From NCBI RefSeq assembly GCF_003018235.1, contig NZ_CP027438.1: a DNA stretch of 64,000 nucleotides. One strand, written 5' to 3'. The notes beneath the pieces are model-generated. The model worked only from the letters and a program-made list of their open reading frames with translations. It did not search any database and was not told the DNA's origin. Positions within the stretch are counted from its first letter, which is position 1; each line of letters starts with the position of its first letter. A program made the position numbers and the translations under genes. Source of the DNA: Escherichia coli (GTDB lineage Bacteria; Pseudomonadota; Gammaproteobacteria; Enterobacterales; Enterobacteriaceae). Positions 60,998-64,000 of this stretch are shown here, one piece after another.

Positions 60998-61428
60998 AAG
61001 TTCATTGACCCGGCAGTATTGACAGAGAACAGCATCAATTGCATCGTCATTTAAAAAAATATAATAAAAGACCTGTATATTTAAAAAATAGGTCTCTATT
61101 TCATATATGGGTCAATGTTATTTAAATGAAGACTTTCGGTGTTACAAATCAGAAAAAATAGTATCTAATATAAAAATCTTTTATTCTATTGTGTGCTACG
61201 CAAGGGCGGTAGCGTTGTGTAAGACGAAGATACATCATACAAGAGAGGCATAAGTTTAATAGATAAATCATTTTATATGTCCATATTGATCCTATGCTAT
61301 ATGCTTATATAAGGCATTCTAATAAAACATTTTGTATGCAGGAGGCAGAATATTTAAGAAACATAATAGACAATGATAGGTGTTTAAATAACATACAACT
61401 GACATATATGGGAGATTATATTGTGATT

Positions 61429-62019
61429 ATGAAATCGAAGAAGAAGTTCCAAAAGGGGTTGTCACTAATTGAAGCTTCGATGGTGCTTGCATTATCTGCT
61501 ATTGTTGTTTCTGGTGTTATGTATTACTACCAGTCAGCGTCTGATAACAATAAGACGCAAAATACCGTATCAGAACTCATGAGTATCGTCTCTGCTGTTA
61601 ATGGATTGTATGCCGGACAGCAGAATTATAATGGATTAACTGAGCAAGTACTTTATAACACCTCAGCAGTACCGGAGAATTATAAAAATACTTCAACTCA
61701 GGGGATAACACATCCATTTGGGGATGATATCACCGTCGGCCCAAGAGGTACTAATGGTGAAAGTGGTTACTATGTTCTGCTTAATCAAATACCTAAGGCT
61801 GCCTGTATCAATTTAGCAACTATGAACTTTGGTACCTCCATGGCTGGAGTAGGTGTAGGCGTGACTAGTAACGAGCTTGGAAATGCAACTTCAGCAACAA
61901 CAATTACTTCAGCAACTGCAGTTCAAAATGGCACACTCTACGCCGGCGCATTTAATCCAACACAAGCATCTTCCGCTTGTAATAGCGACTATAATAACAT
62001 TGGATACATGTTGAAATAA
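61429..62019 (+). CDS. bfpA: type IVb prepilin, bundlin (BfpA) family
   Basis: Leader MKSKKKFQKG then LSLIEASMVLALSAIVVSGVMYYYQSASD... (type IVb prepilin N-terminus); two Cys near C-terminus; overall pattern matches bundlin as recalled (…GLSLIESAMVLALAATVTAGVMFYYQSASDSNK…) but with many substitutions; ORF-track start 61294 is an upstream in-frame ATG. Confidence 0.75.
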   Translation: MKSKKKFQKGLSLIEASMVLALSAIVVSGVMYYYQSASDNNKTQNTVSELMSIVSAVNGLYAGQQNYNGLTEQVLYNTSAVPENYKNTSTQGITHPFGDDITVGPRGTNGESGYYVLLNQIPKAACINLATMNFGTSMAGVGVGVTSNELGNATSATTITSATAVQNGTLYAGAFNPTQASSACNSDYNNIGYMLK

Positions 62020-62061
62020 TATATTTTGAAGGGTAGGGAGGAGGAGGGGGGGGAGAAGAGT

Positions 62062-62526
62062 ATGATTATTTATAGTATGCAAGAGAATAAAACGAGAAAT
62101 ATGTTTATTCGCAGATCTCTTTATCATATTATTATAATGGCTGTGCTGACATGTTCGTTTGGAACTTATTCTTCTGAAAATAACGAGGCTCTATATTCCG
62201 ACTTACTACCAGAGAAAAAAACACAGACAAATACTGTTTCACCTAAAACCATTACCTCTGCAAATGTATTAAATACTTGGTCTGTATATAAGGGACAGAC
62301 ACTTAATAATGTGCTTGCGCAATGGGCAAATATCGCTGGTTGGGATTTAGTGTGGGATTCAGGACAGACATATAAATTGCGGGCTGCAGCATCATTTGAA
62401 CACCTTAGTTTTGAACAGGCCGTGCAGGAATTATTTGATGCTGTAGGAAGCACTGACCCCAAACTTTATGTTACTCTTTATAAAAAGAATAAAGTCATTC
62501 TTGTCTCATCAAAGCCGGAGTTTTAA
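62062..62526 (+). CDS. small signal-peptide protein following the pilin gene (BfpG-position protein)
   Basis: 154 aa from ATG 62062, 9 bp after a purine/G-rich RBS-like stretch; N-terminal hydrophobic segment LYHIIIMAVLTCSFG. Confidence 0.5.
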   Translation: MIIYSMQENKTRNMFIRRSLYHIIIMAVLTCSFGTYSSENNEALYSDLLPEKKTQTNTVSPKTITSANVLNTWSVYKGQTLNNVLAQWANIAGWDLVWDSGQTYKLRAAASFEHLSFEQAVQELFDAVGSTDPKLYVTLYKKNKVILVSSKPEF

Positions 62527-62537
62527 AAGGTATATTT

Positions 62538-64000
62538 ATGCATATACTAAAAAAGACAGTGGTAATTTTACCTTTATTGCCTTTAATCACATCATGCTCA
62601 ACAGACATCTATAAAAATGCCAACGAAAACTATAAGGATGATATGTCAATAGCTGAAAAACATTTATCAGCATCAAAGAATGAAAATATCGCCCGTAATA
62701 CCTCTATCGTAAAAATACTTGATAAGTTATATATAGGAAGTCGTAGTTCTGATAATTCGCATGGCGAACCGTTACCTGTAAATCTGGAAGGGGCGAATGG
62801 AATTTCATTGTCCTCAGGGATCCCTCTAAAACTGGGGAACATTATTGACCTGTTACAACGTTCAACCGGATTATCTGTTGTAAAAAAAGACTATGTTGTT
62901 CCTGCTTCTGTTGCAACCTCTGGTACAGCAACTGAAACTGAAGCGAAGAAAATCTCTGATGAGCTATCTAAAGCCTTGGGAGAGAAAAATAACAATGGTC
63001 AGGGGGGGCTTCAGGGATTGCTTGATCTGAATGCAAGCAAAAATACCATGAATGTTAATTATACGGGACCACTTTCAGTTTTTCTTAATAAAATAGCTTC
63101 TCACTTTGATTTATCATGGCAATATATAGACGGACAAATATTGGTCTCTGGTTATGAAGCAAGAATATTTTCTATCAGTACCTTGCCTAATAAAATACAG
63201 ACAACAAATAGTATAACATCCAGTGATTCAGGGTCTTCATCGGGCTCTTCGGGCTCTTCGGGCTCTTCGGGCTCTTCGGATGGTGTTGGGACGACAAACC
63301 AAACTATCACTATGGATGTATCCTATGATTTCTGGAAGGATCTTGACTCTGAGCTGAAAATGCTTATTGGGGATGATGGTGAATATTATGTATCGCAGAG
63401 TACATCTTCTGTTCTGGTAAAAACATCTCCTTCGATGATGAAAAAAGTTGCTGAATATCTGGATAATCTGAATAAAAAATTAGAGAGACAAGTTTCAGTC
63501 GATGTTCAGGTATACTCAGTATCTGTAGATGATTCAAGTAAGTTCAGCTTAACACTGAATGCACTGTTAAAACGTAATGGTGGCATTTTAGGCAGTGTTA
63601 ATAGTGATTTTAGTAACTCTTCCGGCACCACTCTAGCTGGATTCTGGAATAGTGATGGTAATCAGAATAATAGTGCATTGATGTCTGCATTGGAAAGTAC
63701 GGGGAATGTCAGTACCGTGACATCATCAGTTGTTACTACAATGTCCGGACAACCCGTACCGGTTCTTGTTGGTAATGAAAAAACTTACGTTTCTGAGGTG
63801 GGAACAACTCTCAATAACAATACATCCACGACTTCTGCAAGTACCGATACCATAACGTCCGGATTCCTGATGAATCTGCTGCCAAGGATTATGGATAACG
63901 GTAATATACTTTTGCAATATAATATAACTTTGTCTTCTCTTGTTGGTTCAAATGAAGGATTTAATAATGCTACCGTTTCCGGCACAATTATACAGTTGCC
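62538..64000 (+). CDS. secretin-type outer-membrane lipoprotein of the pilus operon (BfpB-position), partial, runs off window end
   Basis: Open frame from ATG 62538 to 64000 without stop; lipoprotein signal MHILKKTVVILPLLPLITSC; Ser/Thr/Asn-rich; contains in-frame GSS repeats. Confidence 0.65.
   Translation, partial: MHILKKTVVILPLLPLITSCSTDIYKNANENYKDDMSIAEKHLSASKNENIARNTSIVKILDKLYIGSRSSDNSHGEPLPVNLEGANGISLSSGIPLKLGNIIDLLQRSTGLSVVKKDYVVPASVATSGTATETEAKKISDELSKALGEKNNNGQGGLQGLLDLNASKNTMNVNYTGPLSVFLNKIASHFDLSWQYIDGQILVSGYEARIFSISTLPNKIQTTNSITSSDSGSSSGSSGSSGSSGSSDGVGTTNQTITMDVSYDFWKDLDSELKMLIGDDGEYYVSQSTSSVLVKTSPSMMKKVAEYLDNLNKKLERQVSVDVQVYSVSVDDSSKFSLTLNALLKRNGGILGSVNSDFSNSSGTTLAGFWNSDGNQNNSALMSALESTGNVSTVTSSVVTTMSGQPVPVLVGNEKTYVSEVGTTLNNNTSTTSASTDTITSGFLMNLLPRIMDNGNILLQYNITLSSLVGSNEGFNNATVSGTIIQL
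63230..63277 (+). repeat. tandem 9-bp repeat (TCGGGCTCT x4 plus degenerate copy) encoding (GSS)n
   Basis: gggtcttcatcgggctcttcgggctcttcgggctcttcgggctcttcgga inside the secretin-like ORF. Confidence 0.8.

Follow-up and report, generated by a model that had tools for sequence, protein, structure and literature searches.

Two type IVb pili are the named relatives of the locus described here. Lang et al. 2018 (PMC6279748) described the aggregate-forming pilus (AFP) from atypical EAEC and an Stx2 hybrid, in which pAFP plasmids carry its genes, afpA-G-B-C-U-D-E-F-P-H-I-J-K-L-A2, together with afpR. The AFP pilus, autoaggregation and adherence have been shown experimentally and depend on afpA and afpR. 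The described afp operons have a DNA identity of 95.6–98.6% (reference 12-05829), and AfpA and AfpA2 are about 60% identical (PMC6279748). MRE600 is listed as afp-positive in Table S3. BFP is the pilus of typical EPEC, with bfpA-L carried on EAF plasmids that also have perABC. Classical bfp genes are more than 98% alike, and the bundlin variants from bats and birds more than 90%. The operons for TCP and Cof have a gene for a large minor pilin ahead of the secretin gene.

The operon at the end of the window

The window is the whole stretch of 64,000 nucleotides that was analysed. We are confident that a plasmid-borne operon for a type IVb pilus of the BFP/AFP family begins near its end, with three genes inside the window, and that this operon belongs to a distinct, unnamed clade that is sister to AFP. 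The operon is real but a fairly ordinary addition to an already described family. The features at this end of the window are:

61423..62019, plus strand: major prepilin gene of the bundlin/AfpA type, type IVb (Pfam Bundlin, PDB 1ZWT, leader statistics)
62030..62061, plus strand: purine-rich intergenic tract with a G8 run (read from the sequence, pilin stop to next start codon)
62062..62526, plus strand: BfpG/AfpG-like TcpQ-domain protein, presumed secretin partner (Pfam TcpQ; exact start uncertain)
62538..64000, plus strand: BfpB/AfpB-like lipoprotein secretin, first 487 codons, the rest cut by the window end (lipobox, Pfam, PDB 9u5s_A)
63231..63280, plus strand: 9-bp tandem repeat encoding a (GSS)n linker within the secretin (sequence)

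The first-pass annotation had proposed the start of a type IVb pilus operon in the order bfpA-bfpG-bfpB, and the Bundlin, TcpQ and Secretin domains are indeed found in that order. The window shows A, G and a truncated B alone; the other twelve genes were read from a twin plasmid, NZ_CP076711.1, which is 99% identical to the window apart from an IS-mediated rearrangement. In the twin, A-G-B is followed by twelve further genes (C-U-D-E-F-P-H-I-J-K-L-A2), giving the full 15-gene order A-G-B-C-U-D-E-F-P-H-I-J-K-L-A2 that is typical of AFP. The stretch absent between the window end and the window start, expected to measure about 10.9 kb, is exactly this C to A2 stretch. The pilus assembly genes on which the proposal depended do follow in the twin, and the order bfpA-G-B-C-U-D-E-F-P-H-I-J-K-L is present, A-G-B in the window and the rest in NZ_CP076711.1, with one extra gene. 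This is the terminal second pilin gene, A2, which lies outside the window and was seen in NZ_CP076711.1, cM8a and ECOR29.

The pilin open reading frame ends at 62019. An ATG at 61429 gives a protein of 196 aa with the leader MKSKKKFQKG before LSLIEASMVLALSAIVVSGV. The GTG at 61423 is likely the better start, because the 12-residue leader MIMKSKKKFQKG is found in 23 of 45 clade members and GGGAGA lies 8 nt before this GTG. The prepilin MIMKSKKKFQKG/LSLIEASMVLALSAIVVSGV has the hallmarks of a type IVb pilin: a cleavable leader ending in Gly, a residue other than Phe at +1, Glu at +5 and a hydrophobic N-terminal helix (N_methyl motif, E=0.0014). It matches the Pfam families Bundlin (E=1.7e-26) and PilS (5.9e-10), as well as the solved structure of bundlin, 1ZWT (E=1.4e-37 over residues 35–195). 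Cys126 and Cys184 flank the C-terminal region, as in the bundlin globular domain with its disulfide-bounded region. The pilin is 97% identical to that of the CFIA plasmid, 86% to ECOR29, 80% to cM8a and 56–63% to AFP pilins.

The N-terminus of the G protein is hydrophobic. The protein contains a TcpQ domain (E=5.4e-21) and matches chain R ('Lipoprotein') of the BfpB cryo-EM entry 9u5s (E=2.3e-20). Its identity is 95% to CFIA, 44–45% to AFP G proteins and 35% to BfpG. An NCBIfam search assigned neither the pilin nor the G protein to a family. Compared with the twin, the tract between these two genes shows two substitutions and an indel of 8 nt, and the neighboring genes are nearly identical.

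The secretin begins with MHILKKTVVILPLLPLITSC and carries the lipobox LITSC. Its domains are Secretin_N_2 (4.4e-11) and Secretin (1.2e-8), and it matches BfpB in PDB 9u5s_A at 1.4e-117. At the amino acid level it is 100% identical to the CFIA/twin plasmid, 91% to cM8a, 56–60% to AFP and 44–47% to BfpB. The (GSS)n linker differs in length among clade secretins; in P0121, which is 99% identical, it is shorter by two GSS units.

Upstream region and insertion sequences

Four features lie upstream of the pilin gene:

58313..59703, minus strand: older, decayed IS3-family element directly upstream of the newer IS (broken transposase ORFs)
59754..60997, minus strand: intact IS3-family insertion sequence of 1244 bp (orfA 60635..60934, orfB 59784..60638)
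60998..61422, plus strand: AT-rich upstream region, presumed promoter/5'UTR (GC 29.5%; clade-conserved block at about 61063–61222)
61203..61215, plus strand: conserved GC-rich motif AGGGCGGTAGCGT (unique in the window, 0.04 expected)

An intact IS3 had been noted upstream of the pilin. The element and its 3-bp AAG target duplication (59751–59753 and 60998–61000) are real, 431 bp from the pilin ATG, but it belongs to the IS3 family rather than being IS3 proper: it is 81% identical to the IS3 of pMAR2 and is placed in the ISEc16 family by PGAP. Both orfA (99 aa) and orfB (284 aa) are intact, and an identical inverted copy lies at 53525..54768. The insertion is recent, since NZ_CP076711.1 keeps the uninterrupted site with a single AAG. 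The decayed element is also present in the twin, where it is annotated as a frameshifted IS3 family transposase. The plasmid as a whole is rich in IS elements, and the damaged genes of the twin indicate that decay is ongoing in its lineage.

Sensitive blastn of the upstream region against cM8a and ECOR29 gave 64–70% identity confined to 61063–61222. A consensus promoter and terminator scan did no better here than on shuffled sequence and gave no convincing sigma-70 promoter; Rfam had no match in 60950..62100. The motif AGGGCGGTAGCGT recurs with at most one mismatch, on the same strand and 219–463 nt upstream of the first pilin gene, in the window as well as at every one of the 15 AFP and AFP-like loci examined. 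It has no exact match in EPEC bfp loci. We considered that the motif might be part of the IS91-family element found upstream in several relatives and rejected this, as in cM8a the IS ends 369 nt before the motif.

The earlier suggestion that the insertion alters AraC-type activation has no support yet. The IS stands 65 bp outside the conserved block, beside the older IS relic. Because it lies just outside this block, a regulatory effect is unproven, and the insertion is probably neutral for the operon.

Regulators and plasmid context

The other end of the window carries a candidate activator and two sets of genes resembling the aat genes:

82..870, minus strand: AraC-family regulator, candidate operon activator, analogous to AfpR/PerA (262 aa, intact)
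979..2445, plus strand: distant AatD-like membrane acyltransferase gene (488-aa ORF; tblastn)
5765..9458, plus strand: distant aatP-A-B-C-like export genes (ORFs of 375, 403, 282 and 212 aa)

Three clade members have an AraC gene next to the operon, at its 3' end. In cM8a (59%) and ECOR29 (48%), relatives of the regulator at 82..870 adjoin this type of operon on that side, and in the CFIA plasmid the counterpart is frameshifted. The window regulator shares 30% identity over 250 aa with the AfpR-type regulator of an AFP-type plasmid. A second AraC gene, at 48330..49139, is an alternative activator. Both AraC genes are 36–37% identical to PerA, in the HTH domain only, and no perABC or PerA orthologue was found for the window operon. 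Transcription of the operon most likely depends on the regulator at 82..870; the 30% identity to the AfpR-type protein and the presence of the alternative AraC gene weaken this assignment.

By tblastn, about 65% of the product of 979..2445 aligns with annotated AatD proteins at 28–30% identity; it has no Pfam or NCBIfam match. The 403-aa ORF is 29% identical to AatA over 93% of its length. The co-carriage of afpR, aat and aap thus has a partial parallel on this plasmid: an AraC regulator and aatPABC/D-like genes are there, at 29–30% identity, and no dispersin-like gene was identified. The AFP plasmid pMRE600-2 is without aat.

These linked genes bear on the question of whether the operon is a decaying, non-functional remnant, or has been silenced or mis-regulated by the IS insertion. 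We consider this unlikely. The neighborhood is crowded with IS, two IS-family elements lying upstream at no more than 1.7 kb, and a slippage-prone G8 tract precedes the G gene. In the twin plasmid, pseudogenes have hit linked functions: the linked regulator, the leader of the second pilin and the aat-like genes are damaged. However, the three visible genes are intact, as are the regulator and the aat-like genes of the window, and the secretin part is identical in protein to that of the twin. The transposase genes of the IS are directed away from the operon. Moreover, other clade members also show draft-contig ends or IS roughly 0.5–1.2 kb upstream of the pilin gene.

A separate clade in the BFP/AFP family

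Clustering of secretins gave a discrete clade, with about 90% likeness among its members, 59% towards AFP and 47% towards BFP. Among 5426 complete E. coli genomes 3 carry it, and its pilin alleles are many. Its carriers come from humans (Malawi) and a kangaroo rat, and include the Canadian isolate CFIAFB20140388. We found no name for it in the literature searched. The bat 'novel bfp operons' were tried as relatives and rejected; they share more than 90% identity with classical bfp and have no relation to the clade.

By sequence, the nearest named system is AFP, and not the BFP of EPEC with its EAF plasmid. Clade proteins are 44–78% identical to AFP and 22–61% to BFP. Gene by gene, the identities to AFP and BFP are 56–63% versus 49% for A, 58–60% versus 47% for B, 47% versus 33% for C, 67–69% versus 60% for D, 78% versus 61% for E and 69–70% versus 59% for F. 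These values, together with a last second-pilin gene common to AFP only, place the clade nearer AFP. The resemblance to EAF-type plasmids seen in the first-pass annotation therefore did not hold up, as the E and C values and the lack of perABC illustrate.

That the locus is simply the canonical AFP operon of Lang et al. 2018, on a pAFP plasmid, is very improbable. AFP is the nearest named relative, the 15-gene layout with the second pilin last is the same, and an AraC regulator and aat-type genes stand on the same plasmid. Published afp operons nevertheless share 95.6–98.6% of their DNA sequence, whereas megablast of the window operon gave no match to AFP plasmids such as pMRE600-2 and its proteins are 44–78% identical to those of MRE600, JKHS016 and S1-CAM. 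The two pilins, A and A2, are 34–38% identical in the clade; in AFP they are about 60–66% identical, with 66–67% in JKHS016 and MRE600. The regulator shares 30% identity, and the AatA-like and AatD-like proteins about 29%, with their counterparts.

We give next to no credence to the reading that an EAF-type plasmid carries an ordinary EPEC bfp operon here, one whose bundlin allele is unusual. The gene order is the same, bundlin is the best solved-structure match, and the plasmid is of the IncF type with par and ccd loci, like pMAR2. The identity values refute it: pilin, G protein and secretin are 49%, 35% and 44% identical to those of E2348/69, against more than 98% among classical bfp operons. 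The first-pass estimate that the pilin is roughly half identical to EPEC bundlin proved accurate (49.5% over 194 aa to E2348/69 BfpA). At 47–50% to all bfpA-annotated plasmids it is far from the more than 90% of a catalogued bundlin allele, and at 49% to EPEC bundlin it is not a bfp allele. Megablast matched no bfp plasmid, perABC is missing, and the twin has a fifteenth gene.

That the operon makes not an adhesive pilus but a conjugation-associated thin pilus of the R64 PilN/PilS type can be dismissed with the same firmness: the PilN family model TIGR02520 is the best NCBIfam match of the secretin, the pilin has a PilS N-terminal Pfam domain and the plasmid holds F-type tra remnants, but the match scores 197.4 bits against a cut-off of 287.65 with the first 487 secretin residues as query (all PilN/MshL matches of this query are sub-threshold), the order is bfp/afp-like and not pilI-V, and the matches to bundlin, BfpB and BfpG are far better.

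Proposed mechanism and significance

We are thus left with the first genes of a pilus operon of the AFP-sister clade, and homology to BFP and AFP suggests how its product might work. Transcription would most likely be driven by the AraC-type regulator at 82..870. The prepilin would be cut after Gly-1 by the BfpP-like peptidase of the operon, and the pilin polymerized from the inner membrane by a BfpD-like ATPase with homologues of BfpE, BfpC and BfpU. The fibre may be pushed out through the lipoprotein secretin, bearing a ring of the TcpQ-domain G protein, and retracted by a BfpF-like ATPase. Bundling of the fibres could then make bacteria clump and stick to host cells.

It is possible, though we hold this only tentatively, that the clade adds to the BFP/AFP family a third pilus type, distinct in function, with its own AraC activator, a divergent second pilin, a hypervariable surface patch and a GGGCGGTAGC control element common to AFP and not BFP. 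If so, A2, which shares only the leader and N-terminal helix with A (34–38% overall), might give mixed or switchable fibres, and the carriers would be an adherence type missed by current PCR schemes for bfpA, afp and aatA. Typing of diarrhoeagenic E. coli uses the markers bfpA, aatA, aggR and, lately, afp/afpR, and the window operon is too divergent for these probes. Both named relatives are drivers of microcolony formation and of aggregative adherence, and the clade has the full pilus machinery, as read in the twin plasmid. Seen as a separate clade, it offers a definite starting point for studying whether its pilus mediates the adherence of some 'atypical' or unclassified isolates. The understanding of type IVb pili is unchanged by it.

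Comparison with known type IVb pili

AFP is the closest relative for every alignable protein. The likeness extends to the 15-gene order of the twin plasmid with its terminal second pilin gene, to an IncF plasmid on which an AraC-type regulator and aat-type export genes are also found, and to the upstream GGGCGGTAGC motif (61204..61213 in the window). The differences lie in the sequences: the pilin and secretin of the clade are 56–63% and 56–60% identical to those of AFP, A2 is much further from A than in AFP (about 60–67%), the L-position protein has no detectable similarity to that of AFP, and the regulator and the AatA-like and AatD-like proteins show the low identities given above.

With BFP the clade shares the type IVb class, the order of the first 14 genes, the bundlin fold family, a lipoprotein secretin that has a TcpQ-domain partner, and two ATPases, for extension and retraction. 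It differs in protein identity (22–61%; pilin 49%), in the extra terminal pilin gene, in lacking perABC and in an upstream motif unmatched in BFP.

TCP of Vibrio cholerae and CFA/III and Longus of ETEC are more distant. In the solved-structure search the pilin matched TcpA at E=0.099 only, with no CofA or LngA chain at E<=1, and the large minor pilin gene before the secretin in the TCP and Cof operons is absent from the window operon. What the window operon shares with these pili is the general class: a Gly-1/Glu+5 prepilin whose C-terminal region is disulfide-bounded, and an accessory protein with a TcpQ domain.

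Pilus genes at the window end

The final 2.6 kb of the window holds three same-strand genes:

61429 (ATG) to 62019, + strand: type IVb prepilin gene (A), 196 aa
62062..62526, + strand: G gene; hydrophobic N-terminus, TcpQ domain (E=5.4e-21)
62538 to the window end, + strand: secretin gene (B); lipoprotein signal (…LITSC), Secretin_N_2 and Secretin domains; 487 codons inside the window, the remainder beyond its end

The pilin contains a Bundlin domain (Pfam, E=1.7e-26). Its mature N-terminus is LSLIEASMVLALSAIVVSGV, and its C-terminal region is bounded by Cys 126 and Cys 184. In a search of solved structures, EPEC bundlin (1ZWT) was its sole convincing match (E=1.4e-37); TcpA reached E=0.099 at best, and no CofA or LngA chains were among the matches. 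The G protein matches chain R, the BfpB partner in the cryo-EM entry 9u5s (E=2.3e-20), and the secretin matches BfpB itself (9u5s_A, E=1.4e-117). Judged by these domains and structure matches, the three products are homologous to bundlin, BfpG and BfpB, as the first-pass annotation had proposed. The likelier start of the pilin gene is GTG 61423 rather than ATG 61429, because the GTG lies 8 nt downstream of a Shine-Dalgarno sequence (GGGAGA) and yields a 12-residue leader, MIMKSKKKFQKG, present in 23 of 45 close relatives.

Completeness of the operon

IS-mediated rearrangements aside, the window shares ~99% identity with a 69-kb plasmid, "unnamed2" (NZ_CP076711.1, here the CFIA plasmid), from E. 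coli O158:H23 CFIAFB20140388. There, A, G and B are followed by twelve genes, namely C, U, D, E, F, P, H, I, J, K, an L-position gene and a second pilin gene (A2), which were assigned via size, annotation and BLAST to E2348/69. The remaining bfp-type genes expected downstream are thus present in this relative. Position 1 of the window maps 1.2 kb past the last operon gene of the CFIA plasmid, and the stretch absent between window end and window start matches the remaining operon genes exactly. This argues strongly, if indirectly, that the operon is complete in the window's plasmid. The main uncertainty would be the intactness of the twelve genes outside the window, since linked genes are visibly decayed in the CFIA plasmid.

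The reshuffled order of the 99%-identical segments is explained by an inverted identical IS3-family pair (53525-54768 and 59754-60997), an IS100 pair (9993-11948 and 55443-57397) and, in the CFIA plasmid, an IS3-family copy split by IS100. The same IS91-family element lies 5' of the pilus operon in comparison loci L002 (13553-15384) and L006 (3235-5064) and at the 5' ends of L017-L019, and a fragment occurs at window 47047-47710. Its orientation is constant in three operon lineages, with the transposase 5' end toward the operon, which hints that the operon was mobilised in a rolling-circle, one-ended manner.

Extent and variation of the clade

A secretin-fragment search followed by clustering defined a clade of 19 sequences, including the CFIA plasmid and those of cM8a (human, Malawi) and ECOR29 (kangaroo rat). 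Secretin identity averages 90% within the clade; it is 75% to a single further sequence, 59% to AFP, the aggregate-forming pilus, and 47% to the group of BFP, the EPEC bundle-forming pilus. The clade occurs in 3 of 5426 complete E. coli genomes and is plasmid-borne every time. Its genes carry generic public annotations, and no name for it was found in the literature searched. The clustering also gave several more unnamed groups, one in Salmonella. At 75% identity, BfpB-like secretins form at least 13 groups, mostly unnamed, with one E. coli 101-1 and one Salmonella enterica group among them. The family of BFP-like pili extends far beyond BFP and AFP.

The pilin search returned 45 clusters (90% identity) at 73%-96% identity to the window pilin; below these came partial-length matches at 69-73%, then full-length AFP-type pilins at 61% or less. 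Clade pilins are near-invariant at residues 1-70 and 121-140 and hypervariable at 141-170. Between window and CFIA plasmid, nine of the ten substitutions in 61429..64000 fall inside the pilin gene (61728..61996).

Between pilin stop and G start, a purine tract with a G8 run (62030-62061) shows an 8-nt indel and two substitutions relative to the CFIA plasmid, and small compensating indels (2 nt and 1 nt) lie at 62094-62120, within the 5' part of the G ORF. A 9-bp tandem repeat (63231-63280) encodes a (GSS)n linker of the secretin that varies in length and composition across the clade and is two units shorter in a 99%-identical relative. Four clade members encoding an identical pilin (P0015) carry a tandem heptamer, AAACATT, ending 18 nt 5' of the pilin start codon, with 10, 8, 10 and 9 copies in L013 (1129-1198), L014 (679-734), L015 (400-469) and L016 (399-461). 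This variable repeat could act as an expression switch in these loci; it is absent from the window.

Upstream region

The three genes have 36-40% GC, the 431-bp region upstream of them 29.5% and the whole window 44%. The features concerned are:

59754..60997, − strand (orfA, orfB): IS3-family element, 1244 bp; intact orfA (99 aa) and orfB (284 aa), flanking AAG
53525..54768: identical inverted copy of this element
61203-61215: GC-rich motif AGGGCGGTAGCGT, core GGGCGGTAGC

The first-pass annotation described an intact IS3 with an AAG duplication. The element at 59754..60997 is indeed intact, with AAG on both sides and imperfect terminal inverted repeats. In the CFIA plasmid the same flanks meet at a single AAG, an empty site, which marks the insertion as genuine and recent. 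With only 81% identity to the pMAR2 copy of IS3, the element belongs to the IS3 family but is not IS3. A decayed IS3-family element 50 bp further upstream is common to both plasmids. In a sensitive alignment, upstream conservation across the clade was restricted to ~61063..61222, which places the new IS 65 bp outside it. Because of this distance, and because the transposase genes are directed away from the pilin gene, the IS probably has little effect on pilus regulation and would be neutral.

The motif AGGGCGGTAGCGT recurs at L001 16207, L002 15753, L006 6112, L007 15732, L008 15726, L010 4573 and in L013-L022, 219-463 nt 5' of the first pilin gene within otherwise unalignable AT-rich DNA. 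With at most one mismatch it is present in all AFP and AFP-like loci examined; EPEC bfp loci contain no exact match. Possible roles are those of an operator, a 5'UTR element and a module boundary.

Comparison with BFP and AFP

Percent protein identity of window-type operon products to BFP (pMAR2 of E2348/69) and to AFP (plasmid CP014200 of the afp-positive strain MRE600 and two further AFP-type plasmids)
Protein: BFP; AFP
A (pilin): 49; 56-63
G: 35; 44-65 (65% alignments cover the C-terminal ~82 aa only)
B (secretin): 44-47; 56-60 (68 over a partial 309-aa alignment in MRE600)
C: 33; 47-48
U: 28; 43-44
D: 60; 67-69
E: 61; 78
F: 59; 69-70
P: 50; 56-61
H: 57; 69

I and J are 22-24% identical to their pMAR2 counterparts, and K and L had no match there. 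Classical bfp operons are >98% alike, and bat and bird variants >90%. The identities observed here are far lower, so the pilin, correctly judged at first pass to be roughly half identical to EPEC bundlin and rightly suspected to be distinct from its alleles, is not a bundlin allele. The likeness to EPEC EAF plasmids gives way to a closer one, since AFP is nearer than BFP throughout.

AFP is encoded by a 15-gene bfp-like operon with a terminal extra pilin gene, afpA2, on aatA-positive plasmids; it depends on the AraC-type AfpR and is needed for piliation, autoaggregation, aggregative adherence and cytotoxicity (PMC6279748). Window-type products resemble BFP about as much as AFP does (published AFP-BFP identities: A 44, B 44, C 30.5, D 56, E 60, F 59; Lang et al. 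2018, PMC6279748). Described afp operons share 95.6-98.6% DNA identity (PMC6279748), whereas the window-type operon falls far below this and the window matched no AFP plasmid by megablast. The first and second pilins share 34-38% identity in the clade, against 66-67% in AFP plasmids.

ECOR29 carries an orphan second-pilin gene (L010 20055-20636) 3 kb past the operon, 97% identical to A2 of the CFIA plasmid (L001 28152-28682), where the A2 leader is destroyed. Over its first 86 coding nt and 54 upstream nt, the orphan matches the first pilin gene of the window (61375-61514) at 98.6% identity. A and A2 thus have a 140-bp 5' module in common, suggestive of gene conversion or cassette exchange.

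Regulator and exporter-like genes are:

82..870, − strand: intact AraC-family gene, adjoining the operon 3' end on the circular map
979..2445: aatD-like gene, beside it
5765..9458: aatP/A/B/C-like genes
48330..49139: second AraC gene, HilD-like

Relatives of the first regulator occupy the equivalent site in cM8a (59% identity) and ECOR29 (48%); the CFIA copy is frameshifted. It is 30% identical over 250 residues to the regulator of an AFP-type plasmid and aligns with PerA over the HTH domain only. The aat-like genes, with ~29% identity to AatA and AatD, are distant homologues of the dispersin export genes, intact in the window and decayed or fragmented in the CFIA plasmid. Adjoining the second AraC gene, 49969-50481 (internal start MKKKIQYF...) encodes a small secreted protein whose predicted signal-peptide cleavage (…SFA|GSHQQ) would leave an N-terminal glycine. 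An N-terminal glycine is a feature of Aat-type system substrates, and the aat-like genes may export this protein.

The system is a previously unnamed member of the BFP/AFP family rather than a new kind, with AFP as its nearest published relative. Like BFP and AFP, it would assemble an adhesive pilus that bundles and retracts, and the 82..870 regulator would activate its operon. The trio of pAFP, an AraC regulator, an Aat-type exporter and a pilus, recurs on the window's plasmid, each part as a distant homologue.
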